From positions 22,198,001 through 22,262,000 of the forward strand of contig OZ076409.1 of the NCBI GenBank assembly GCA_964187785.1: DNA of 64,000 bases, written 5' to 3'. The stretch is from Amphiscolops sp. MND2022. Its lineage: Eukaryota. The notes under the pieces were generated by a model, which did no database searches, was not told the origin of the DNA, and worked only from the letters and a program-made list of their open reading frames with translations. Positions 8,601-62,599 of this stretch are shown one piece after another. The translations under genes and the position numbers were made by a program. Position 1 is the first letter of the stretch, and each line of letters opens with the position of its first letter.

Positions 8601-9381
8601 CAAATCTGAATAATTTGAGGTCCCAGACCTTGAAACAAGAATTCAAAGACATGACAACCCTCACTATTGGTTAGGTGGTTCAACAAGATATACTACAAGT
8701 AAAAAACTTTCAATAAAGATTCTTTTACAATATTACCCTCAATGAAGACACTATTCCTCAGGTCAAAGTCTTCACTCAATTTTGATTAAAGTTGTTCAGA
8801 TTTAACTATCAATTGCTTCGGTAACAACAAGATCAACAAGCATACATTCATTTTCCTCAAATACTAACAGAAACTGAACTCTTAACATACATCATTAAAT
8901 ATGAATATAGACATTTACAGTACAGGGATCCTTCCTCATTTAACGCCACTTATTTTGAACAGATAAATCTGAATGACAACTTTATAACTGAATAATCTGA
9001 ACCTCTGATAACAGACCTTATATTACTTCTAACATTTCCCCTGAAACAACCCCAGAAGAACAAAACTTTTCTGTCTTACCTCATTATGCTAGAATAAATA
9101 CAGTACAATCAGAACAAGATGACCTTGTAAACCTTTTCCAAAGTCAAGGACCTCACCAATTAAATCCACTGTATCCACAATTACCACAAGCTTCTGATAT
9201 ACAACAGCCAAATCCTTCTGAAACTGCTACAATACAAAATGCATCAGAATTCTCTGAAGAAACAGTCCAGACTGTACAAAATACCCAGAGTCTTACAAAA
9301 ACTAATGATTCAAACCTTATACAAGTTCCTACCCACAAAACCACACCAGACCAAACTAATAACCAAAACCAAGACAACACT

Positions 9382-11310
9382 TTGAGCACAACTCAAGATA
9401 ACACCTCTATTTTATCTACATCTCATACTACTGTCACACAACCATTTCAGACACAAAGATCCCCTCGTCAAACTTGTGACCCACCTTCTATTCCATCTCA
9501 ATTCTCAACTCAAATCCACACTCATAATTCTCCTCAACCTCTTCTAATACCCACCCAACACACTAATAGAGTCCATTTTCAAACACCAACTCCACCATCA
9601 CCTTCTGAAATACAAACTTCAACTTATACTCCATCCCAAAGTAATCCAGTACAAAATGTACAAACTGGTTTAAATACTAACACTATCCAATCAAACCCAC
9701 CTTTCCATTACACAACTTCTAGACACCTTTCCAGACCTCCGTTGCAACCCATATTATCTAATCCATTATCATACAATCTTACAAGCACAAACTCGAGTCA
9801 TACACAAAAATCTTCGACAAACAATAGTCGACCCAATTCCTTAAATACTTTTCCTCCTCCCCAACCGTCTAATACAATCACACCTACATTACAAAACTCA
9901 CAATTCCAAATACCAAACCCCCTTTCAACAAAGATTAGAAATAATCCTCACTTTCATAATCCACCTACCACCCCTTTTACAAAAACCTCAAATGTTCCTA
10001 CATACAATACAGTACCACCATCTACACTATCTCAAAATACCATTTCACAACCGACATATATCAACTCTTCAATTTCAATATCAGACTCAATTAAACCTTT
10101 TGATGGCTTAGATCATAACTATACACCTGAAGAATGCTTACAACATATTGAGGCACGTGTTACATTTTCCTTAGGATTACAACGTACTTCCAAAAATGAA
10201 TATAAGTTTTGGCACGTCCGTCGCAGGGCTTCTATACAATGTTTCTTAACAGGGACAGCTCTTAGTTGGTACATTCGTTTGATCGACACTTATAAACAAT
10301 GTTGGCACGCTTTTAAACAAGCTTTCAAAAAACAAATCTCTTCTCAAACGAATGCTTACTATGCTCAAGTTGAAGCGCTTAATTTATCAAAAAAGGACAA
10401 TGAAACGGTTCGTCATTTTGCACTTAAAGTTCAACAGCTGGTTGAAAAAGGCTGGTGCAATGAGAATGCATCTACTATCAATCTCAAATGTAATGAAATT
10501 TTCACAAAAGGATTTCCTAAAAACCTCAAAGTCTTTGCAAATAAAAGACAAGTAAAACACACTTCTACTGTCTTAGAACCTCCTATTCCTTTTCATACAT
10601 TAGTAAAACTTGTTCATGCTGAAGACATTGCAAACGACAAAATTAGAACACATGATCTTGCACTTGAAGTCAATAGCATTAAAAAACAACTATGCACCCA
10701 AACTCTTGAACCTTCATCACAAGAACAACTTATGTTTACTCAACCTAAAGACCCAAATAACAAAATAAACCTGCATATAAAAAAATATAACAAGTTGTTC
10801 ATACTGTCACAGAACAAATCACTCCATCTCTGCTTGTTTCAAAACACAACGAGATGATGAAGACAAACGAGATGCTTATGGTCGATCAAAATATTCACAA
10901 AATTCATTTGTACAGTACTTTCGTTCTCCTTCTAACGATAGAACAAAACGTTATGATAATCAATATAGAAGTCGAAGTACTTCACGTAACAACTCTTATT
11001 ACAATACCTATTCACAAAATCGATACCGTTCTACATCTAGAGATATATTTAGCTACGACAAAAGTACTAATCCTCCGCAGAACTCTAGATCTCGATATGA
11101 TACTTATAAACGCGGTTCACGGTCTTACCGCTCTCCATACAGATCTCCTTATAGATCTCCTCATAGACACAACTCTCGTCCTAGGTTTAGATCACGCTCC
11201 TATTGAAGAGACAATAATTTCACAAGATATACAAAGTCATACAGACCACCTTCAAGACCAAGAGATTCTAGATTTTCTAGATCCCGTTCACACTTCAATT
11301 CTAGAAATAA
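9382..11310 (+). pseudogene. gag: Gypsy gag: P/S/T-rich N-terminus, retrotransposon gag domain, CCHC knuckle and RS-rich tail (frameshifted)
   Basis: IKPFDG...LTGTALSWY...FKQAFKKQ in ORF 9382-10857; CSYCHRTNHSISAC (CX2CX4HX4C) at 10796-10837 in a shifted frame. Confidence 0.85.
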
Positions 11311-11317
11311 AATCTAT

Positions 11318-14217
11318 ATGATACAATCACAAGAACAATCCGAACCTATAACATTTGAAGTACACATGTGTCACCCAACGGCAATGGCAATTGCTGTAAC
11401 ACCTACAAGTTGGTTTTATACTCTATATGTCCATAAACCATCAAGTATAGGACAAAGAGATAACCCATCCAGGCTTGAAATTGCATTCCTTTTAGATAGC
11501 AGTCCTTCAATCTCTGTGTTAAATTACCCAACATCCATCACTCTTACAAAACTCTTAGATATCAGACCAAATCACACTTCTGACATTGGACCACATCACA
11601 CTGCAAAAACCTTAGTTGTTGCAAACCAAACCGAAGTTCCTATATTACATTATGCCATTTATAATTTCAAACACCACGATTGACGATACTTCTCGTTACT
11701 TTTCATTACCTTTTGCAGTAGCTGATATTAAATACACTATCCTTGGTTCACCCTTCTTTGAAGACAATATACAAAACATAAACATAGAAGATTTTACACT
11801 AGAGTTTAAAGACCAATCGAAAAAACGCCCCAACTATGCAAAATTCACAACACTCTTATCTAAAGACTACCCATATTTTTCATACGTTTACAGAATCAAC
11901 TCTAAATCTCAAATACGTTTCAAACCTAAATCTTCTAAAATTGCACACTTTCCAAGAGAAAATATTATAATCATCATTTAACAACCACAACACAAAACCA
12001 CTTCTTCCCTACAATACCACACACTTATTTTGCTACCAAGTTTCGTACAAATTTCAATTTCATTGAAGTTTTCACAGATAAGAAGCCAGACATTTGTGCA
12101 ACTATTATTCAGAACACCTTCAAACATGTTGCGACATTACCTACATGACATATTGGATATATTGAAGTTTCTATTACAAATTAAAAACCTAAATTTTACC
12201 AAGTTAACAAGATTAACACTTTAATACATAATGTTACTCATACATACCATCCTGAAATAACTGAACCAGTTCCACAAACCAATTATATTGTACACTATGA
12301 TGATCCTACAACTCCCCCTCCTCAATTTTCACTACATCAAGTTTATATGACAAATTCGGACATACCACACCAAACTTCACCTTTATATAACGTCCAACCA
12401 ACTTCTCACACTTCTGAAACACGTATTTTTCTTTCCTTACCATATACTTCTGAAAATCTGAAAGTCATCAACAAATTTAACTTCCATTTCTCTGACCTTA
12501 CAGACACTGAGTACATTACCCTTTGCAATATGTTACCTAAATATAAAACCTGTTATGCAACTCATAAGAACGATGTTGGTAAAATCTCAACTCCCTTTCG
12601 TATTAGACGTAAACCAGGCGCTCAACTTCTTACACAACGCCCTTCCAAAGTACAAATTCACTACCGAGATAAATTAAATGCTCTTCTTAAAGAGTTAGAA
12701 AAATACAACATTATAAAACAAATCGGTTCTTCTCTACAAGACAACCCAGCTTATGGTACAACTTATTTAAACCCTCCTATTAAAATCCCCAAAGGAGACA
12801 ATATAAACTGTGTATTAGACGCTCGACACCTTAACTCAAACACAGAACAATCTGATGAATCTTGGCCTATTGAACCTGTCGCTCCACAATTAGCGCGAGC
12901 AAACAAAAAGTACAAATGTGCAATTGATCTTATGTACCCCTCGATGAAGACACTATCAAACTTACCAATTTCTCCTCAGGTGACAATCTCTTTGCCTTCA
13001 TAAGAGGTTTTTATGGTCTGAAAGGACTCCCAAATTTCTTTTCAAAACAAATGTCTACCTTCTTTAGAGCTCTTATAGAACAAGGTTTTGCCCTTGTTTA
13101 CATTGACGATATCTTTCTTTTATCTGACTCTAAAGAACATATGTTCCAACTCATAGAACAATTACACATTATAAGTATAAAAAACAATCTTAAACTGACT
13201 CCTGCAAAATCCTTTTTCATGCTTCTTAAAGTCAAATTTCTTGGACATGAAACTGGTTACAATACAATGAAACCAGTTCACTCAAAAATTGCAGCTATTC
13301 ATAAAATTCCTTCTCCTACTGGCAAAGTTGCTCTAATGAGTTTCATTGGAGCACTCACCTTTTACTCTAGATTTATTGAAAAACTACATATTAACCTTAA
13401 ACCGTTTCAAGATCTTTTACATGAGAACACTCCATGGAAATGAACATAAAGGTCTTTTTCAAAAACTAAAAATGTCTCTTACTTCTGAAACAGAACTTAC
13501 AATACCAAATACGAAACACCCATTTTTTATCAGTGTTGATGCTTCACCTATTGGATTAGGCGCTGTTCTCTTCCAATTAAATGAACAAAACAAAATGAAA
13601 GTTATATCGTACAATTCTCGTATACTTAACCCACAAGAACAAAAACTTTCAACACTTGACCGAGAACTTCTTGGTATAGTACATGCTCTTCAAATTTATG
13701 AATTTCTTATTATTGGTTCCCCCCATCCAATACATATTTTTACTGATCACAAACCTCTTTTACATTGTTTTACAAAAAAGGGTTACCTTAGTCCTCGTTT
13801 CTATAGAGCTCAAATGAAAATAACTAAATGTTCAAAACTCAAAATAATCCACACCCCTGGAAAAAACCTTTCTGTTGCTGACATGTTAAGCCGCTTTTTT
13901 GCAAAAGCCGAATTACAACTAAACCAATTAAAGCAGAAACAATTTCCACCACAAATTGATTTCGCACTATTACAAAACGGCACTCTTAAACCTGTACATT
14001 ACCTAATCAAACACGAAGAAATTTTACCTCATCAAAAACATGATTCTCACCCAATTCTTGCTGATTATGGTACAGATCAATTTTCCATTCGTATTAATGA
14101 TAAATGAAATGACATTGTTGTCAAACCTTTACATTCTTTCTCATTTATATCTGTAACTCCTTTTCAAACAAAATTCAAAACATCCCTCAAAAAGAACAAC
14201 AAAACCCTTCATCAACA
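11318..14217 (+). pseudogene. pol: Gypsy pol: aspartic protease, reverse transcriptase and RNase H (frameshifts and stops)
   Basis: FLLDSSPSISVL and ILGSPF (protease); CVLDARHLN and VYIDDI (RT); VDASPIGLGAVL, RELLGI and TDHKPL (RNase H). Confidence 0.9.
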
Positions 14218-15029: not shown

Positions 15030-17450
15030 TCCAATTTCATACTGACCCTGAAAAAACACCCTACATCGTTTTCCATTTCACAGGAATAAGATCTAAAGCC
15101 ACTGAAATAATGAATAAAAGCACAGGAATAAGATCTAAAACCACTGAATTGAGAACCGAATCCACAGCAATATACATGGAATAAGATCTAAAATTCCCCA
15201 ATACGACATTTTCTCCAATTTCAATCGTAAAAAATCAATAAATGGGCACAAATCTGTGTACGTCGGTTCTCATTTTAGTGGTAGAAGATCTAAAGCCATT
15301 GAAATAAGGACTAAAACGGCTGGAAAATCTAAAATTCATCACGACATTCTCTCCAATTTCATACTGAAAACCCCTGAAAAAACCTACGTCGGTTTCCATT
15401 TCACAGGAAGAAGATCTAGAACCACTGAATTGAGAACCGAATCAACAGCAATATACATGGAATAAGATCTAAAATTCCCTAATACATTTTCTCCAATTTC
15501 ATTCGTAAAAAATCAATAAATGGGCACAAATCTGTGTACGTCGGTTCTCATTTTAGTAGTAGAAGATAGAAAGCCATTGGAATAAGGACTAAAACCTGTG
15601 GAAAATCTAAAATCCATCACGACATTTTCTCCAATTTGATACTGAAAACCCCTGAAAAAAACCTACGTCGGTTTCCCTTTCACAGGAAGAAGATCTAGAA
15701 CCACTGAATTGAGAACCGAATCAACAGCAAAATACATGGAATAAGATCTAAAATTCCCTAAAACAATTTCTCCAATTTCATTCGTAAAAAATTTAAAAAA
15801 TGGACTCAAATCTGTGTACGTCGGTTCTCATTTTAGTGGTAGATCTAAAGCCATTGAAATAACGACTAAAACTGCTAGGAAATCTAAAATTCATCACGAC
15901 ATTCTCTCCCATTTCATACTGAAAACCCCTGAAAAAAACCTACGTCGGTTTCCATTTCACAGGAATAAGATCTAACACCACTGAACTGAAAACCGAATCA
16001 ACAGCAATATACATGGAATAAGATCTAAAATTCCCCAATACGACATTTTCTCCAATTTCATTCGTAAAAAATTTAAAAAATGGACTCAAATCTGTGTACG
16101 TCGGTTCTCATTTTAGTGGTAGATCTAAAGCCATTGAAATAACGACTAAAACTGCTAGGAAATCTAAAATTCATCACGACATTCTCTCCCATTTCATACT
16201 GAAAACCCCTGAAAAAAACCTACGTCGGTTTCCATTTCACAGGAATAAGATCTAACACCACTGAACTGAAAACCGAATCAACAGCAATATACATGGAATA
16301 AGATCTAAAATTCCCTAATACATTTTCTCCAATTTCATTCGTAAAAAATTTAAAAAATGGACTCAAATCTGTGTTCGTCGGTTCTCATTTTAGTAGAAGA
16401 TCACGACATTTTCTCCAATTTCATACTGAAAACCCCTGAAAAACACCTACGTCGGTTTCCATTTCACAGGAATAAGATCTAACACCACTGAACTGAAAAC
16501 CGAATCAACAGCAATATACATGGAATAAGATCTAAAATTCCCTAATACATTTTCTCCAATTTCATTCGTAAAAAATTTAAAAAATGGACTCAAATCTGTG
16601 TTCGTCGGTTCTCATTTTAGTAGAAGATCACGACATTTTCTCCAATTTCATACTGAAAACCCCTGAAAAACACCTACGTCGGTTTCCATTTCACAGGAAT
16701 AAGATCTAACACCACTGAACTGAAAACCGAATCAACAGCAATATACATGGAATAAGATCTAAAATTCCCTAATACATTTTCTCCAATTTCATTCGTAAAA
16801 AATTTAAAAAATGGACTCAAATCTGTGTTCGTCGGTTCTCATTTTAGTAGAAGATCACGACATTTTCTCCAATTTCATACTGAAAACCCCTGAAAAACAC
16901 CTACGTCGGTTTCCATTTCACAGGAATAAGATCTAACACCACTGAACTGAAAACCGAATCAACAGCAATATACATGGAATAAGATCTAAAATTCCCTAAT
17001 ACATTTTCTCCAATTTCATTCGTAAAAAATTTAAAAAATGGACTCAAATCTGTGTTCGTCGGTTCTCATTTTAGTAGAAGATCACGACATTTTCTCCAAT
17101 TTCATACTGAAAACCCCTGAAAAACACCTACGTCGGTTTCCATTTCACAGGAATAAGATCTAACACCACTGAACTGAAAACCGAATCAACAGCAATATAC
17201 ATGGAATAAGATCTAAAATTCCCTAATACATTTTCTCCAATTTCATTCGTAAAAAATTTAAAAAATGGACTCAAATCTGTGTTCGTCGGTTCTCATTTTA
17301 GTAGAAGATCACGACATTTTCTCCAATTTCATACTGAAAACCCCTGAAAAAACCTCATACATCGGTTTCCATTTCACAGGAATAAGTTCTAAAGCCACTG
17401 AAATAATGTCCAAAAGCACAGGAATAAGATCTAAAATCACTGGAATAAGG
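15030..17450 (+). repeat. Satellite array: about 278-280-bp units followed by 227-bp units
   Basis: Anchor ATGG(G/A)C(A/T)CAAATCTGTG at 15242, 15520, 15800, 16080, 16357, 16584, 16811, 17038, 17265. Confidence 0.95.
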
Positions 17451-45805: not shown

Positions 45806-48800
45806 TCACCGGCCCTGTGTTTCTCTTGGGGAGGAACACATCCAATGTCGTCCAACACACGGGACAACTTGACTGTGGGTCGAAAAACAACTCCAGATTG
45901 GGTTAGGATGTCACAAGATCGAAGATTGCCATCATTCCCAAAATGGCACTTTTTAACTCTTCCAAGGCGGTAAAAACCTCGTTTCTCACGATGGTCTATA
46001 ATCCACACCAGGCCGTTTTCTTTCAATTGCGGACGTTCCTTGTACCACTTCTGGCGGATATTATGGACTGGGAGATACTCTTTCAGCCATCTTGCTCAAA
46101 TGTTGTCCATGTGAGCTTGAGCCACTCGGAACATTTTTATGTGATTTTGGTACTTTTGCGCATCTGGCAAATATGGAATAGCAATACTCGACCGACCCAA
46201 TAGAAAATGATGGGGGTGTCAAAACCTCCATGTCGGAAAGATCATTAGAGCTAGGCGTGAGTGGGCGAGAATTCAGCAGTTGCTCAGTGAGACAAACAAT
46301 CGTAGTTAAAAGCTCGTCAGTGAGCCTCTGACCATTCAGAACGTGGTATATGGCCTGTTTGCATGTCTTCACCGTTCGCTCCTAAGACCCTTCGAAATGT
46401 GGCGCTGCAGCAGGGTTGAATTTCCAAACTATTTTCTTTTGCTGAAGTTTTTCTTGGAAGTCCCTATTCTGCCACATTGCTGCAAAATGCTTCAGCTCGT
46501 TGTTCGCTCCAACGAAGTTTGTACCATTGTCGCACCAAATTGTTGATGGTTGACCTCTTCTGGCAATGAATCGTATAACAGCGCTCAGACAGGAGTCAGT
46601 ATCTAGCGAATACACCATTTCAAGGTGTATGGCCCTTGTCGACAGGCAGGTAAAGACACACACCCATCTCTTCAAGGTTTTTCTCATGTATTTCACCGCT
46701 GTGGGCCCAAAAGGATCGACTCCAACGTGAGTAAAAGAGAAATCAACTTTCCCCATTCTTTCTCTAAGTAGATCAGCCTTGATTGGGGGGCTTGGATTAC
46801 GGCACTGTATTTCCTACATGGAATGCAGCTACTTTTGATGTTCCGCAAAGCGTTTATGAGGCCCAATATCCAAAATTTTTATTGCAATCCATGTCGCATA
46901 CTCACAACACCTTGATGATATTTGTGCAAATGACATTTCAGCATCATCAATCGTGTTGCAGAATGTTTGGATGGCAGAAGAATTGGGTGTTTAGTATCGA
47001 GCACGAAATCAGCTTTTGATAAACGCCCACGTACTCTCATAACACCCTGATTGTCGATAAACGGCCAAAGTTGTGCAATGTTTGATTTGGAAGATAACTC
47101 TTTTCTATTGACTAGGGTAGACTAGGGTATATCATATTCAGTCGTGAAAGATTCCTTTTGATTCAATTTGAATGTGATTCGCTCTGCATAGTGATATTCG
47201 TCCAATGAAACTAGTCCTCTTACTCGATTGGATCTTCTCCAACGTTGTATGTAGCAAGAAGTATGAATAAATCTAGTCCAAGAAGTAAATCGTTCCCATT
47301 GTATCTCAAGTGGCTTGCCTGGCATTAGAATAACTACATTAGACAATTCTGATGTGTCCTCAACAACAGTGCACGCAGCAATAGCTTTTGGCTAGTGAGA
47401 TTGGTTCTCACTCAGCCACGTCAGCCCGTTTAGCCACATACTTGACGCAATTTCATTGGCTCCCATCCCTCGCGTGCCAAGGTCTGCAAGATTTTGTGCG
47501 CCAGGGATATGATTCCATTCACCCAGCTTGGTGTTTTTCAAATTTCCACCAATAGGATTTGCAAACAAAATTTGCTGCTTCTTTTCAAATGCATTCAGCC
47601 ATTGAATCACTGTTGATGAATCATTCCACATGAAAACCTAATTTATGAAGAAATCTTGTTCTTCTATGATGGATACTTTTCCCCGTGAAGCATGAAGGGC
47701 TGCTTGAAGCTCCAATTTTGGAATTTTAGTATTTTTGATAGGAGCCACTTTTGTTTTCCCCAATACGAAAGAAATTTTGACTTTGTCATCAATCTCAAAC
47801 CTCAAGTAGGCGACGACACGAAGTCCCATTTCTGATGCATCGGCAAACACATGTACTTGAACATTATTGCCACGCTGCCAGCCATAATGTCGGTTCCTTG
47901 AGAGTTCCTTCAGGGCTGGAATTTTTTGTAACCAATCAAGATATTGTTCTGCAATTTCTTGCGGAAGTTGTCCATCCCAAGATTTCAAAGCCTTCTGCCA
48001 AATAAGTCATTGGACGAATTCTGATTGTGAAGGGTGAAGCCAGTCCCAATGGACCAAATATGGAGGATGCCACGGACAGAACCTCTCTGAGAGTGATTAT
48101 GGTATGCTCTTTGCCTGCGAAGCCACGGCACAGTTTGAGGTAGTCCATGATGAGATTCCATTCCAAACCCAAAGTAGAAACACTCTCCACGATACTGTCT
48201 TTTTCACACAATTCTTTCACATTTGATTGCCATAAAGAAAGCTTGAAACCACCTCTCCACAGGAGAGATACCAGGTTCTGTTTCAAAGATTCAGCTTCCT
48301 GGATATTTTCCGCAGAATACAAGAAGTGGTTCATATAGAAAATTCGCTTGACAATTCTAGAAGCGACTAGGAATTCTTCCTCATTATCCGTGGCTGTACG
48401 TTGTAAAGCATAATTCACACATGTTGGCGAGTCATTGGCTCCAAATATTTGCCGAATGTATTCATACGTGGATATGTCATCTGATTGATTTTCTCACCAA
48501 AGGAAGCGAAGGCGTTTTGCATCTTCTGGAGGGACTTGTACCTGCAAGAACATTGCTTCAATATCTGCGCCCATGGCAAACGACTTCTCCCGGAACCGAA
48601 AATTGATCCCTACAAGATTCTGTAATAAATCAGGACCAATGAAGAGACTTTTGTTCAAAGAATGTCCTTCAATTTCGTTAGCCGCATTGCAGACGCGCCT
48701 CACTTTTCCAGGTTTGTTCGGGTTGATTACAGGGTGATGGGGTATATACCACTCAGGTTCATTTCTAGTCTCTTGAATCTCAGTTGGTTTAAGTATCCGA

Positions 48801-50064
48801 ATAAAACTCGAATCTTTATCCGTCTTGATTGTACCTGAATACGCATCTTTGAGTTCTGGGTACTTTGCCAGTCGCTTTTCGCGTGACAAGAACTGTTTAA
48901 CTGCAGTACGATAATTGTTCGGAAGGGAAGTCTGGAACGGGGAAAATTCCACATCATTCCCACGGAGTACCTGTCATTTTCACGGTGCGTTGTCTTTTTA
49001 AAAGTTTCAAGTGCTTTAACATCTGATCTGGATCGCCCGTCCATTTTCACCCGTGAACCACAACTTTCGTTGTTCCACCATGTTTTGATTTGTTCGTTTA
49101 AGTCGAAATCTGCAGATTGATGAACCGAAATATGACATGATGTCAGTGAGGACACAATCTTTTTTGGCAACGGCCAACTGACTGTCCACCCCAAAGAACA
49201 TCGAACAGCCCAAGGCTCACCTGGCTGTCCTCGTTGATATTCTAAGGATCGAGTCATAGAGAAGCAATCTGTGCCAAGGATAACTTTGACAACTTTCAGA
49301 TTGAAAATGTTTGAAGGAACTTTGGTCAGTTGCGGGTACTGACTCTGCATCTTTGAACATCGTAAAAACTGTCGCCGATAACAAGATTTCGATGAATAGC
49401 CATCTGGATATCCTCGTTTCCGTAGTCGTTCGAATGAAACGTGGTTTTGACCAGCCACTGTCGTGGCATTCAGTACCGTTTATTCCGCTATCAGTTAGAT
49501 CGCGCTTGACTCCCTGCAGATTAAGTTGGTATTCTGACGTTTTATCAAGACTGTTTAGTCTTGAATCTTGACACGGGTGTCGTTAAATTGGTCTGACAAC
49601 TCACAGTAGCGTAGAAACTGACTTTTATCCTTCAAATTAGGGTGAACTGTTTCACATCTTTTCAGTTTGCTGAACAATGTTGAGTATTCTTTGTAAAGTT
49701 GTTCAAGCCCACTCGTTTGACAACGTAAGACTTTGCGACGCTCTGACTGATACTTGTCTTTAAGCAGGTGAATGCAACTGTCGCTTTCGTTTGTTATTCC
49801 TTCAATGGATTCGCTATAATCTTGATAAAGACTACCCAATTCGTTTATACTGGGTTCATAATCTTTTCCTTTAGCTTTCAGTTCCTCGAACTTCGAAGAT
49901 GTCTGTGCTATTGCTTCAATTGTTTTAGCAAATCGCACTTCGTGTTCTCTCCATTCTGCAGCATTGGATGAATTCTTCAGGGCATTCGAAAATAACAACA
50001 CCTGTGTCGTTCCACCTTTCTTTACTGTCATTACCTTCGGAACGGTGTAGTCAAATGTCGCCAT
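45793..50064 (-). pseudogene. Pao gag-pol relic (gag N-terminus, protease, RT, RNase H, integrase)
   Basis: WYIPHHPVINPNKPGKVRRVCNA, GPDLLQNL and ADIEAMFLQV (RT); HVFADASE and IPKLELQAA (RNase H); GVDPFGP, CLSTRAIHLE, DNGTNFVGA, APHFEG and LNSRPL (integrase). Confidence 0.95.
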
Positions 50065-50302
50065 CTTTGTACAATAACTTCTTTTGCTAACTTGCTGTAT
50101 GTTGTATTTTGGTCAACCAGATGGACAATGAATCAATCCTTTGTGACGTGAGTACAATGTCCAGTTAAGTAAGAATTTTGCTCTTCTTCAAGATAAGAGC
50201 AAACCAATTGCGTATCTACCAATCTAACAAAGCTGAGAAAAGAAGAACAGAAGTCAAAGATAGTGAATTATAACGCAACCTTCCCGGGTCGCGACACCAA
50301 AA

Positions 50303-53564: not shown

Positions 53565-53833
53565 TTTTCTCGTTGTTCATTGAAAATAATCCTGAATAAA
53601 TATCAATAATCCACAGATCCAAACTTTTAGCTGTAGATTTGCACCTTGAACATAATCAGACTGAAAATATCTTAGCCCAATTGGTCCTGCTTTTGAATAG
53701 GTTTCGACGACACTATGAGATTTTGAGAACTTTTAAAAAACAGTTCCTTTGTGTTTTCTGAGCCTTATGCAGGGCTTTTTTTGTTTTTTTTTCCTGTAAT
53801 TTTGAATAAACAAGTTGATTTTTTCATTTCCAG

Positions 53834-54581
53834 GAAACTTACCAGATTGAGTTTCATCGGTCTTCGAGAACTGGAGGAAATTGATTTGGCTGGAAACTTC
53901 ATTTCTTACATTGAGCCCGAAACCTTCGCTGGGCTGCCGAACTTGAATCGCGTGAACTTGGCCGAGAATGAAATGCAAACCCTGGAAAGATACTACTTCC
54001 GAGCCACGACATTCGAGCGCATCTATCTTTCCCTGGATGGCAACAATTTCTATTGCAACGAAGACTTGAAAGAGGAAATCAATGCCATCAAGCATAAAAT
54101 AGACGTCGGCGGGCTGGTCTGCACTGGGGGCGAAATCTGGCGAGTTTTCGGCAAAGTGAGAGGCAGAAACTACGAAGACATTGAAAGTCAAATCCGGAAA
54201 AACTTTGATTCCTGGGAAATTGCGCTTCTAACGGTTGCGTGTTTTATTGTTGTGTGTATCGGTCTTTTCATAGCTTTGGTGGTTCTACGGTTGAGGTCTA
54301 AAGGCTACCAAACTGGCGAGTCAGTGAACCCGAAGGAGGGTGCCACAAAAAGGGATCCGAATGTGAGGGCTAGTGTTAGAGACTCTATGATGGACGAAGG
54401 CCCTTCGAATAATGAGTCATCGAACCCGAGTGGCAGGCGAATAGAAATTACCTCCGAGGATCCTTACAATAATGATGATGACGACGACATGATTTTCACC
54501 CCAGCCAGCGCCCAGCCCCAAAATAACGATCCGGGGCATCATACACCCCCTAACGAGTTTAACAACGATAGTCGAATTTGA
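53834..54581 (+). CDS. Exon 2 of the LRR membrane protein (LRRs, reduced LRRCT, TM, acidic tail)
   Basis: Acceptor TTTTCATTTCCAG; phase-2 join gives NNELQ-KLTRLSFIGLRELEEIDLAGNFISYIEPETFAGLPNLNRVNLAEN; TM IALLTVACFIVVCIGLFIALVVL; spliced CDS of 978 nt gives 325 aa. Confidence 0.9.
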
Positions 54582-59017: not shown

Positions 59018-59609
59018 TAGAATTGTTTTGCGTGCATGTGTCATCCAATGTAAACTTTACTGTATGTATGTATGTGTTAATGTACGTATGCGGTAATTGT
59101 TTAATCGCGTAATTCAGTCAAAGTTGTTGTGTAATTTAGTCAAAGTAATTGAACGCCAAACAACTATTCAATGTAAAATGATGTGTTGGAAGTAATTATT
59201 AAATTCCCGTAAACTAGTCAAACTTTGACTAATTTACACTTTTCGGTAGTTTTGTAAAAGGAGACTCACTAAAAGTGAAATTTATTCAAACTTTGACTAA
59301 CTTACACCTTACTAAATTAGCTTTTATATTTTGACTGTTTTACACCATTTACTAACTACCCATTTTGACTGGAATTCACCGCGTTCATATTACACTTTGC
59401 TGCACCGCTACACTAATAGATTACTACAGTCTTTGACAAATTTACAGTAATTGACTATTTTACCCAAAAAACTATTTACACCAAGTGATCACTTTTCACT
59501 TTTGCGGGACATGTATCGTAATGTCCGGCAGCCAACCAGGAAGCCCCGCGTGAAGCAAAACAGCTGGAATGCCACGTACTGCATTCGTTTTTTTGGGTTG
59601 AATCGACAT

Positions 59610-60825
59610 TGTTAGAGTGTTCACTCTCATAGTAAGTTTTAATCAAATGGAAGCTTGAAAACAAAAGTTCAAGTTCAAGAGAGCAAGTAGGCCTGTCACA
59701 AACGTGGACCTTGTAGCTCAGTGATTTACAGCTGAGTACCAAATCAATCAGATTGCAATCGCAACGCATTGTGGGGGCGCAACTCACAGGGTCCCAATAA
59801 TTTCTCACTAGTCGAAAGTTGACATTGCATCAACTAAGATTTGTTTCTTTAAATGTTAGTCCAAAAGGTTATGGGCCTAGCATAAAGCTTACAGAACGTG
59901 AGAGAGATGATACAGAACTTAAGCGGGGGTGTTAGAGTGTTCACTCCTATAGTAAATTTTGATCCATTGGATGCTTGAAAACGAAAGTTCAAGTTCAAAA
60001 AGAGCAAGTAAGACTCTCGGTAGCATGGACCTTGTAGCTCAGTGATTTACAGTTGAGTACCAAACTAATCAGATTGCCATCACAACGCATTGTGGGGTCG
60101 CTGCTCATAAGGTCCTTATATTTTCTCACTAGTCGAAAGTTGACATTGAATCAACTAAGATTGGTTTTTTTAAATGTTAGTCCAATAGGTTATGGGACTA
60201 GCATAACGCTTACAGAACGTGAGAAAGATGATGAACAGTTTAGGCGGGGGTGTTAGAGTGTTCACTCTCATAGTAAGTTGTAATCAATGAAAGCTTGAAT
60301 ACGAAAGTTCAAGTTCAAGAGAGCAAGTAAGACTCTCAGTAGCGTGGACCTTGTAGCTCAGTGGTTTACAGTTGAGTACCAAATCAATCAGATTGCAATC
60401 ACAACGCATTGTGGGGTCGCTACTCACAAAGTCCCTATAATTTCTCACAAGTCGAAAGTTGACATTGAATCAACTAAGATTGGGTTCTTTGAATCTTAGT
60501 CCAATAGGTTATGGGCCTAGCATAACGCTTACAGAACGTGAGAAAGATGATATGCAACTTAAGCGGGGGTGTTAGAGTGTTCACTATCATAGTAAGTTGT
60601 AATCAATGGAAAGCTTGAATACGAAAGTTCAAGTTCAAGAGAGCAAGTAAGACTCTCAGTAGCGTGGATCTGGTGGCTCAGTGGTTTACAGCTGAGTACC
60701 AAATCAATCCGATTGCAATCACAACGGATTGTGGGGTCGCAACTCACAAGGTCCAAATATTTTCTCACTATTTGAAAGTTGACATTAAATCAACTAAGAT
60801 TGGTTACCTAAATGTTAGTACAATA
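59610..60825 (+). mobile_element. Tandem-array TRIM (4 LTRs, 3 internal domains) with copia-type PBS
   Basis: TSD GACAT (59605-59609 and 60826-60830); LTRs 59610-59866, 59930-60187, 60251-60506, 60570-60825; each 63-bp internal domain starts GGTTATGGG(C/A)CTAGCA and ends A(A/G)GCGGGGG before TGTTAG. Confidence 0.9.
60346..60434 (+). ncRNA. tRNA-like Pol III module in a TRIM LTR (also at 59706-59794, 60027-60115, 60666-60754)
   Basis: Consensus GGACCTT...AAGGTCC closing stem; A box TAGCTCAGTGG; T-arm-like GTGGG-GTCGCAA-CTCAC; B box degenerate; expression unknown. Confidence 0.5.
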
Positions 60826-61007
60826 GACATCAACTTAATGCAAGATTCTTTTCTGTTTAAAATGTGCTAGAACAAAGCTGAACCGTATTTAATATTCGTT
60901 TTCGATTCCACCCTCGCTTTTTTGTCTCTCAGTGTCTTTCTGGAGGCAGTTTCTAAAAATAAAAACACACTACTTCCTGATCTACATTGTTGTGTCTTTT
61001 CCAGATG

Positions 61008-61372: not shown

Positions 61373-61628
61373 TTTGAATTCGTTACGGAAATCGTAATAC
61401 TTTTCTTCGTTTGTTACATTTTTGCAACTTCCTCCACTGTGATTGAAGAATTCGCGACAACGGCAGCAAAAAAATGATTCATCCGTCTTTCGCCCTTCGT
61501 TTTTAGCTTTTGTCTGCCTCCTGTGTGTATGTTGATTTTGCTACCTCATGGGGCTCTTGGGGGGTTTCAGATGATCGAATCACCAATATTAAAGAGTAAT
61601 ACAAAGATGATTGAATCGTGACTGAATC

Positions 61629-61754
61629 GCCGAACATCAAATGGATTTCAACTAAAAAGATGATCATTATGATGGTTTTCACAAGCGTCTTAAGACGCTT
61701 GTGAAAACCATCATAATGATCATCTTTTTAGTTGAAATCCATTTGATGTTCGGC
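61629..61754. repeat. 126-bp perfect palindrome centred on TTAA
   Basis: 63-bp arms, GCCGAACATC...GTCTT|AAGAC...GATGTTCGGC. Confidence 0.95.
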
Positions 61755-62599
61755 AATTGACAAAAGTTCTGGAAAGGTAGACTATGGTACCAAGAAGGTA
61801 GAGACAATTAATATCGCATACGAAAAGCGAAAACTTTAAGCAGGCCATGTATTTAGCAACCGTCCCAGGAGCAAAACGTTATGAGAGTTTCATCGGAATT
61901 AAAGAAATATAACACAGTAACTTGAAAATTTTGTACATTTTGAACTATATTACGCAAAATCTTGAAAAAAAACTGGTCACAAAAAATTGTCATGATTATT
62001 TTTGTAGCTTTGAAAACCTTTTTCAATTTTTATGTGCAACTTTTCCAGATGATGCTTTCTTGAAAACTGAGCAGCCAAAAACAGTTATAACGCCGTCGAG
62101 ACAAACATCTCCGGTGTTTCAAGGAAAAGTGTTTAAAGGTACAATGTTACATGATAAATTACATGATATTACATGATAAATTCCGGAATATGCCAAAAGT
62201 CAAAATAAGGTGTTATAACTTTCTTAGATTTCAGAACAAAAAGTACACCCGTAGTCTTGATTGCACTTTCGAGAAAGTTTTGCACCTCGGACTTTTGTGT
62301 CAATTCGTTAGTTGCAAATCGACAGCGATATCAGCAAAATCGAGTGTCTCTAGTTTTCTGATACCCTTATGAATGTTCACTATTGTCATGTTAAAGTTAA
62401 AAGTCTAGCGTCTCAGAGTTAGCTTGATACAATTCTGCGATCCTCCTCACGCATGCGAATTTCAATTAGGTTTGCTAAAGTTAAAATAATTCCTGAAAGC
62501 CACTAAGCTCCACGTTCGATAGTTGAACATAAAACATTTAGATTTTGAGGTTTTATTTTTCTATGGCAGTGGTAAACATCGTTTTGCTCAATCTCTTTG

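Follow-up and report, generated by a model that had tools for sequence, protein, structure and literature searches.

A tandem non-coding TRIM array, probably primed by half of tRNAiMet and served by Copia, that most likely grew in place

Is the tandem repeat at positions 59605 to 60830 of the window (the whole stretch of 64,000 nucleotides that was analysed) a satellite or an array of retroelements, and, in the latter case, what copied it and how did it grow? Tandem Repeats Finder (TRF) gave a period of 319, 3.8 copies, and a score of 1877. The layout proposed in the initial annotation, four LTRs of 256–258 bp alternating with three internal domains of 63 bp and an LTR at both ends, was reproduced with coordinates, all on the forward strand: LTR1 (59610..59866, 257 bp), internal domain 1 (59867..59929), LTR2 (59930..60187, 258 bp), internal domain 2 (60188..60250), LTR3 (60251..60506, 256 bp), internal domain 3 (60507..60569), and LTR4 (60570..60825, 256 bp). 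The claimed 5-bp target site duplication (TSD) GACAT is read directly from the sequence as perfect copies at 59605..59609 on the left and 60826..60830 on the right. All three internal domains begin, as annotated, with GGTTATGGG(C/A)CTAGCA, which includes the PBS (59867–59882, 60188–60203 with one additional mismatch, and 60507–60522), and end in the PPT-like A(A/G)GCGGGGG (59921–59929, 60242–60250, and 60561–60569). None of the LTRs ends in CA, again as described before: in order they terminate in CAAAA, CAATA, CAATA, and CAATA, so that LTR1 runs from TG to AA, while the TA end is family-wide. The window LTRs are 86–91% identical in pairs (9–14% difference) and the internal domains 86–92% (8–14%), from which we conclude that the array is old. 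It contains no open reading frame of 150 amino acids, and the window yielded no Copia protein match; three open reading frames at 47936–49479 of the window received no Pfam name. The head-to-tail period of 319 bp speaks for a satellite with a mere likeness to a TRIM, but the arrangement of n LTRs and n−1 internal domains, the single TSD, the solo LTRs scattered over the genome, and the existence of a two-LTR copy leave that reading with next to no probability, and the annotation as a tandem TRIM rather than a satellite stands.

A search of the 1.07-Gb assembly with one array unit returned at least 55 matches, and about 30 dispersed relics of the TRIM were recognized. Both ends are preserved at 25 loci: 22 solo LTRs, one two-LTR copy on C1813, and two arrays, one in the window and the other on C2. 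The remainder is made up of a hybrid and several pieces that are partial or diverged. The C2 array consists of 12 LTRs and 11 internal domains (L12I11) within the TSD ACCAC, and its first LTR is interrupted by approximately 18 kb of inserted DNA. Like the window array (L4I3), it thus has n LTRs, n−1 internal domains, and one TSD. The copy on C1813 (259 + 63 + 256 bp, TSD GTTTC) has the proportions of a TRIM: it is under 1 kb, with two short direct repeats, a short internal domain, and a 9-nt purine-rich end containing one C that adjoins the 3′ LTR. These three TSD-bounded loci are the ones that contain the 63-bp internal domain. Of the 25 TSDs, 16 are perfect (one of these loci, L017, is ambiguous), seven have one mismatch, and two have two to three mismatches, which places 23 of 25 loci at zero or one mismatch; the count omits loci with one end missing, a duplicate copy on C13, and the hybrid. 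The right-hand 5-mers all differ (25/25), any site preference being only weak, and when the left 5-mer of one locus was combined with the right 5-mer of another, 0 of 600 pairs matched perfectly vs 16 of the 25 true pairs. The initial annotation had staked its reading on dispersed copies that agree in their ends and have 5-bp TSDs of their own, and these do exist. Among 37 aligned copies, 35 start with TG and 31 end in AATA. Two candidates for long LTR pairs were rejected, one at C13:13.36 Mb, which is a duplication with an identical TSD in both copies, and one at C3:70.99 Mb, a 49-bp fragment inside a 4.55-kb duplicate. In the LTR tree, from which 5 of 42 copies were omitted as duplicates or because their ends were damaged or missing, the solo LTRs form a star 3–10% from a column yardstick, with 96.4% identity between the two nearest of them. 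The family hence looks like the product of one old burst. It looks extinct, with arrays that kept changing afterwards.

The PBS was examined against the tRNA genes of the host. Its 16 nucleotides pair with nucleotides 24–39 of the host tRNAiMet, with zero gap to the LTR end, and the predicted duplex of the window copies with tRNA nucleotides 1–39 (−30.6 to −37.8 kcal/mol) is far more stable than that with the tRNA 3′ end (−7.3 to −9.2 kcal/mol); a bulge of three nucleotides permits up to five further pairs. The PBS pattern had 491 matches in the genome vs none for a reversed control; among the matches listed, most belong to arrays of tRNA genes or to Copia elements, and host tRNAiMet genes were reached through it on C2 (one gene) and C8 (an array). 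The claim that the PBS complements a cleaved tRNAiMet fragment thus survived comparison with the host tRNA. Priming by the 5′ half of tRNAiMet is likely, cleavage and priming both being deduced from complementarity. The initial annotation assigned this PBS to the Drosophila copia (Hemivirus) type, here a putative label. The C-to-T change at PBS position 12, for which a G-U pair had been suggested, does allow such a pair; it is not a trait of the family, however, since it occurs in three of three window internal domains and in none of 12 others. On this distribution it is most likely a mutation after insertion that was copied as the array expanded. Priming by a half molecule of tRNA-Met is a Copia trait (PMC6317226; PMC10886601), and the PBS of such Ty1/copia elements complements the tRNAiMet 5′ half, ending in the anticodon stem (PMC6317226, PMC10886601). 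The TRIM resembles Drosophila copia, Ty5, Osser, and Bryco in placing its PBS on this half and differs from them in having no coding region and an LTR unrelated to those of five local Copia families.

Within the LTR, nucleotides 96–184 resemble a tRNA: an exact box A is followed, about 60 nt after its start, by a hairpin with a 7-nt loop, and the ends of the segment pair. In the window, the segments lie at 59707..59794 in LTR1 (box A 59714–59724), 60028..60115 in LTR2 (box A 60035–60045, T4 at 60121–60124), 60347..60434 in LTR3 (exact box A 60354–60364), and 60667..60754 in LTR4 (exact box A 60674–60684, T4 at 60760–60763). Among 22 independent loci, box A (TRGCY and YGG) is intact in 18, and a T4 stands six bases past the segment in 19. 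Host genes for tRNA-Cys and tRNA-Ala contain the same box A 12-mer. At the position of box B, GGTTC is present in 2 of the 22 loci (with two further matches elsewhere) and GGGTC in 16. Divergence amounts to 4.2% in the segment and 6.9% elsewhere in the LTR (p 5e-5). A covariance model was built from six tRNA genes of the host, which represent five isotypes. It ranked the four window segments as the top 4 of 11 matches in 4.5 kb (E 0.2, 0.87, 0.44, and 0.21 for LTR1 to LTR4, all weak); in 75.6 kb, the first five of 15 matches were TRIM segments (weak, E 0.12–0.19), and the LTR of Copia family A was not matched. The result is consistent with a tRNA origin and not significant. No Rfam tRNA match at E ≤ 10 and no ARAGORN call were obtained for the segment. 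In a post hoc test, the box A+B score exceeded 398–400 of 400 shuffles in six of seven copies (382 in LTR1), while one of four control LTRs, that of family A, also passed (0/400). Folding z-scores of five copies ranged from −0.6 to −4.1. Host tRNA-Trp genes, considered as a source of the segment, had no convincing match by eye. Box A-containing tRNA-like pieces were also noted within three other repeat families of the genome.

We consider a tRNA origin of the segment probable, and it is slightly more likely than not that the TRIM, while active, had a functional Pol III promoter. That the element was an ordinary Pol II TRIM, its tRNA-like look due to chance or a dead relic, is the less probable view but one to be taken seriously, given covariance E-values of 0.12–0.9, a degenerate box B, the control LTR that passed the box test, and the similar pieces in the three other repeat families. 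It would have to treat as coincidence an exact box A, stem-closed ends, a T-arm-like hairpin at the spacing of a tRNA with an insert, the T4, and the lower divergence. The TRIM LTR also has no TATA box, unlike the LTRs of Copia families A, D, and E.

The initial annotation had regarded the array as a non-coding parasite of a Ty1/copia helper. At least five Copia families with the PBS of the TRIM exist in the genome: A (LTR 320 bp, ends TA…AA), B (233 bp, TG…TA), C (two loci, ends not fixed), D (approximately 668 bp, TG…CA), and E (565 bp, TG…TA). Families A, B, D, and E show the order gag-PR-IN-RT with RVT_2, a PBS flush with the LTR, a G-rich PPT the same as or near that of the TRIM, and a 5-bp TSD. 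The TG…TA termini are common to the TRIM and the autonomous families B and E. Family B comes nearest to the TRIM at termini and PPT; the two agree in the first eight bases of the LTR, in the AATA end, in the 16-nt PBS, and over the final nine bases of the PPT. The proteins of D and E are 80% identical, yet the elements end in CA and TA, respectively, so the integrase of this clade likely accepts both ends. No autonomous element sharing LTR or internal sequence with the TRIM was found in a DNA search of the genome or with LTR-start and internal-domain patterns. The LTR-start pattern led to 20 further sites and five loci without a new TRIM copy, the LTR-end plus PBS pattern to no autonomous element with a TRIM LTR at the sites examined up to C4, and BLAST against the D and E loci to no TRIM LTR partner. 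Alignment of the TRIM LTR with the LTRs of A, B, D, and E gave no score exceeding shuffles. Of the annotated claim, the non-coding nature was upheld, as was the presence of autonomous Copia families that agree with the TRIM in PBS and TSD length and resemble it in the PPT. Copying and integration were probably the work of an unrelated Copia of the D/E clade.

A single locus bears on the identity of this helper. At G000:C1:40459377-40462384, the 5′ LTR of family D, its PBS, and gag, PR, and part of IN are followed by the TRIM internal domain and a TRIM LTR, with the TSD CAGCT at both outer ends. The D part is 86% identical to young D copies over 2.7 kb. The TRIM internal domain is entered at the 3′ edge of the PBS with a microhomology of two nucleotides, and the TRIM LTR differs from the yardstick by 5.9%, within the range of the solo LTRs. 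With D copies present whose LTR pairs are 92% identical, this divergence implies that D was active in the period of the hybrid. The hybrid is likely a fossil of co-packaging that names D as the helper. Inside a D particle, the minus strand may have stalled at the tRNA-bound PBS and switched to D RNA, whereupon the molecule would have been completed by the D plus-strand end or by joining of cDNAs and integrated once. Standard reverse transcription produces two identical LTRs (PMC6894440), so that an unusual step has to be assumed. We count the single locus and the two nucleotides of microhomology against the helper reading.

The hybrid could instead have arisen in the chromosome, if both elements had inserted at one 5-mer and a deletion had followed or if the flanks match by chance, and the helper could then be B, whose LTR start, AATA end, PBS, and PPT bases match the TRIM. 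Only one such locus exists, and double insertion at one site is documented in Drosophila, some LTR elements included (PMC5932611). Chance matches of 5-mers were nevertheless absent (0/600), the 25 different TSDs indicate weak site preference, and the junction lies at the PBS edge, where the minus strand is expected to stall and where it would fall by chance in about one case in ten by our estimate. A chromosomal origin is thus unlikely, though far from negligible. No TSD-bounded helper/TRIM hybrid was found in the part of the literature that was searched.

Two routes of growth had been offered for the array, integration as a multimer and expansion by unequal LTR exchange; the states shared among the LTRs support local expansion and disfavor the multimer. 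Five states (nt 38, 102, 157, 203, and 238) are common to LTR1–3 and missing from LTR4; in 22 yardstick rows, four of them never occur (0/22) and one occurs once (1/22). LTR1–3 form a clade (support 99/92), and there are no states exclusive to LTR1 and LTR4. Because LTR1–3 share private states and LTR1 and LTR4 none, we infer a two-LTR insertion, its divergence, and then duplication in place of the 5′ LTR with the internal domain; LTR4, without the changes common to the others, would likely be the original 3′ LTR. On these sequence patterns, the window array most likely expanded locally rather than arriving as a multimer. Patterns shared by LTR1+LTR2, LTR2+LTR3, and LTR1+LTR3 conflict, so conversion or homoplasy was also at work. 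LTR1 and LTR2 (10.5% and 12.5% from the yardstick) are about twice as diverged as LTR3 and LTR4 (6%), which counts against a simple story of local growth. In the C2 array, the ten inner LTRs agree in their left half with the last LTR at six states missing from the first, and in their right half with the first LTR at one state (nt 187) missing from the last; two neighboring LTRs are 99.6% identical. This mosaic fits the expected product of unequal exchange between a 3′ and a 5′ LTR; recombining cDNA also fits.

Had the whole array integrated at once as multimeric cDNA, formed from read-through RNA of a donor array or by repeated strand jumps, the single TSD around it would be explained. The genome does hold a dimer of family A with three identical LTRs, two identical internal regions of 4093 bp, and one TSD, and the route has been proposed for Cassandra arrays (PMC7215508). 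It predicts, however, that LTR1 and LTR4 were the same at insertion. They are 87% identical, less than three of the other five pairs, and have no exclusive state in common; furthermore, the states shared by LTR1–3 are private to the window locus, and the PBS mismatch is common to all three internal domains. Such a mismatch is not expected to persist through tRNA-templated copying. We regard this route as very unlikely. Hardly better placed is the addition of units by cDNA recombining into the resident copy without integrase, as for Ty5 and Tf1, a known source of LTR-sharing tandems (cited in PMC11899658, PMC5932611). The left/right switch of the C2 LTRs at nt 114–186 lies within the predicted R region (97–194), as would suit it, but in U3 the window LTR2 and LTR3 follow LTR1 (nt 30, 38, 40, and 50) rather than LTR4, the sole link of LTR2 with LTR4 being nt 37, and these states occur in no outside donor. 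In the accessible text of PMC11899658, PMC7215508, and PMC5932611, all three routes are discussed and none is decided upon.

The observed anatomy, family, TSDs, PBS–tRNA complementarity, private changes of LTR1–3, and D/TRIM hybrid within one TSD can be joined in a proposed life cycle. Transcription would start from the tRNA-like segment at about nt 97 of the LTR, read through the T4 of the 5′ LTR, and end at that of the 3′ LTR; the expected RNA is about 415 nt long. This RNA would be packaged in a Copia particle and primed by the cleaved tRNA, whose 3′ end at nucleotide 39 would lie flush with the LTR; plus-strand priming would occur at the PPT, and the TG…TA ends would be integrated with a 5-bp stagger. 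Later LTR–LTR recombination would have reduced most loci to solo LTRs and, at two loci, multiplied the units. Taken as a whole, we consider it quite probable that the array is a tandem, non-coding TRIM, primed by half of tRNAiMet, served by Copia, headed by Pol III, and grown locally from a two-LTR insertion.

The closest counterparts are Helenus and TRIMp3 (PMC10886601), TRIMs with a tRNA-like LTR segment, which is weak here, and the box A TRGCY and YGG. Helenus elements of 311–1263 bp leave many solo LTRs (PMC10886601), as does the present family with 575 bp for two LTRs. Fungal Helenus elements belong with Copia, have a 5-bp TSD, and are mostly primed at the anticodon loop of tRNAiMet (PMC10886601); their PBS on the anticodon arm and a Copia partner without LTR similarity recur here. 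Animal Helenus elements have a Gypsy-type PBS and a 4-bp TSD (Kojima 2024, PMC10886601), in contrast to the 5-bp TSD and half-tRNAiMet PBS found in this host, which is most likely an animal. For two proteins encoded in the window, animal phyla prevail in the nearest clusters, which serves as a lead to an animal host and gives no fungal impression. The present TRIM further departs from the Helenus elements described in the available text by a box B without GGTTC in 20 of 22 loci, by TG…TA ends, and by the TSD-bounded hybrid with an autonomous family. We class it as likely Helenus-like in its working rather than as a proven member, since a tRNA origin is probable and a Pol III promoter only slightly favored. 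An animal Copia-type Helenus was not found in the literature searched, the coverage of which was partial.

Tandem TRIMs, which the initial annotation placed mainly in plants, are indeed on record there (Gao 2016, PMC4717578) but also in cestodes and bivalves (PMC6934838) and, as arrays of LTR-11_DR, in zebrafish (PMC10886601). They agree with the present arrays in L(n)I(n−1) structure, shared LTRs, one TSD, solo LTRs, and the lack of coding capacity (PMC4717578, PMC7215508, PMC6934838, and LTR-11_DR). The biv-TRIM has no clear PBS in the accessible text of PMC6934838, unlike the TRIM described here, and Cassandra combines a 5S segment with a PBS for a tRNA 3′ end (PMC7215508), which also sets it apart; the available part of PMC11889832 holds no PBS data. 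At 256–259 bp, the LTR is slightly longer than the 100–250 bp quoted in PMC6934838. What distinguishes this TRIM from the other tandem TRIMs is that its LTRs preserve a readable sequence of events, which favors local expansion. The TGTA end is one of seven non-canonical motifs, carried mostly by Copia elements with short LTRs (mean 272 bp; Ou and Jiang, 10.1101/137141), and is shared by non-TGCA Copia elements and the TRIM. That survey dealt with plants, whereas TG…TA, TG…CA, and TA…AA coexist here among families with one primer in a probable animal.

A tandem TRIM is in itself ordinary, and this family is small and apparently extinct; tandem TRIMs were already known in animals. Its interest beyond the routine lies in the likely Pol III head and in the hybrid that points to a helper. 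Both the tRNA-like LTR segment and the D/TRIM locus are additions to the initial annotation. How TRIMs depend on helpers is not known, nor is a helper of Cassandra, according to the available text of Kojima (2024, PMC10886601), and related long elements were reported for only 11 of 289 TRIM subfamilies (Gao 2016, PMC4717578). A hybrid of helper and TRIM within one TSD offers evidence, at the level of sequence, for a helper without LTR homology, and any genome can be screened for more of this kind. The two arrays reveal an order of insertion, divergence, and local exchange, which the plant studies compared left open in the text available. Tentatively, and with somewhat less than even confidence in the joint claim, we propose an animal Pol III TRIM of the Helenus type that parasitized Copia rather than Gypsy, sharing with its helper only the half-tRNAiMet PBS, the PPT, and tolerated TG…TA ends, with the hybrid as a co-packaging fossil in which two unrelated LTRs entered in one integration. 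The TRIM described here would then break the reported split of Helenus into fungal Copia and animal Gypsy types.

Head-to-tail multimers were also found among Copia elements of the assembly containing the window. A family-A dimer on contig C4 at 63.195-63.205 Mb (L101) consists of three 320-bp LTRs, all of which are identical, and two identical 4093-bp internal regions, and it is flanked by one TSD, TTGAA. It is either a very recent tandem or an assembly artefact. Further Copia tandems were detected for family A at locus L094 and for family E at locus L253. A second tandem array of a short, deleted unit is located on contig C8 at 22581036-22585899 (L100). Its 469-bp unit is a deletion derivative of family B, comprising the LTR, the PBS and the final ~226 bp of the internal region; the array contains seven LTRs, one of them interrupted, and its TSD is ACCAG. 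This array was seen at a single locus.

On contig C1 (40459377-40462384, L038), a hybrid element combines a 5' half of Copia family D with a 3' half of the TRIM, both enclosed by a single 5-bp TSD. The LTR termini vary among the Copia families that have the primer in common, with TA..AA in family A, TG..TA in families B and E, and TG..CA in family D.

In the window, LTR1 and LTR2 of the TRIM array (59610-60187) diverge from the TRIM family about twice as much as LTR3 and LTR4. Two post hoc observations concern the target sites: the mismatch is at position 1 in six of the seven one-mismatch TSDs of solo-LTR loci, and the right TSD starts with G in 13 of 25 TRIM loci. Fragments of the LTR start (49-57 bp) lie inside other, partly duplicated sequence on C3 (70.99 Mb), C12 (55.23 Mb) and C13 (0.49 Mb). 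Two far older relatives (70-73% identity) are present on C8 at 52.285 Mb (L189) and 53.728 Mb (L187), one of which retains the LTR end, the PBS and the internal domain.

The window also contains a broken Gypsy-like element (9001-14107; gag, RVT_1 and RNase H by Pfam), two adjoining tandem arrays with units of 280 bp and 227 bp that have sequence in common (15121-17402), and a near-perfect palindrome with 67-nt arms and no spacer (61625-61758). ORFs at 47936-50112 appeared BEL/Pao-like by eye; a Pfam search of them gave no match. A leucine-rich-repeat ORF at 53727-54581 has a probable membrane segment.

A box A/B-like pair in the family-A LTR (L093:871-923) outscored 400 of 400 shuffles and did not match the tRNA covariance model. 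Some tRNA genes of the assembly form tandem arrays of one isotype each (iMet, Trp, Cys, Lys, Arg) with a period of ~200 bp and numerous variant anticodons; such arrays are located on C8 at 62.05 Mb and 56.57-56.67 Mb, on C7 at 38.63 Mb and 5.2-5.3 Mb, and on C8 at 47.9 Mb. Additionally, the longer elements of three other dispersed repeat families (L299-L328) contain tRNA-like segments that carry both box A and box B.
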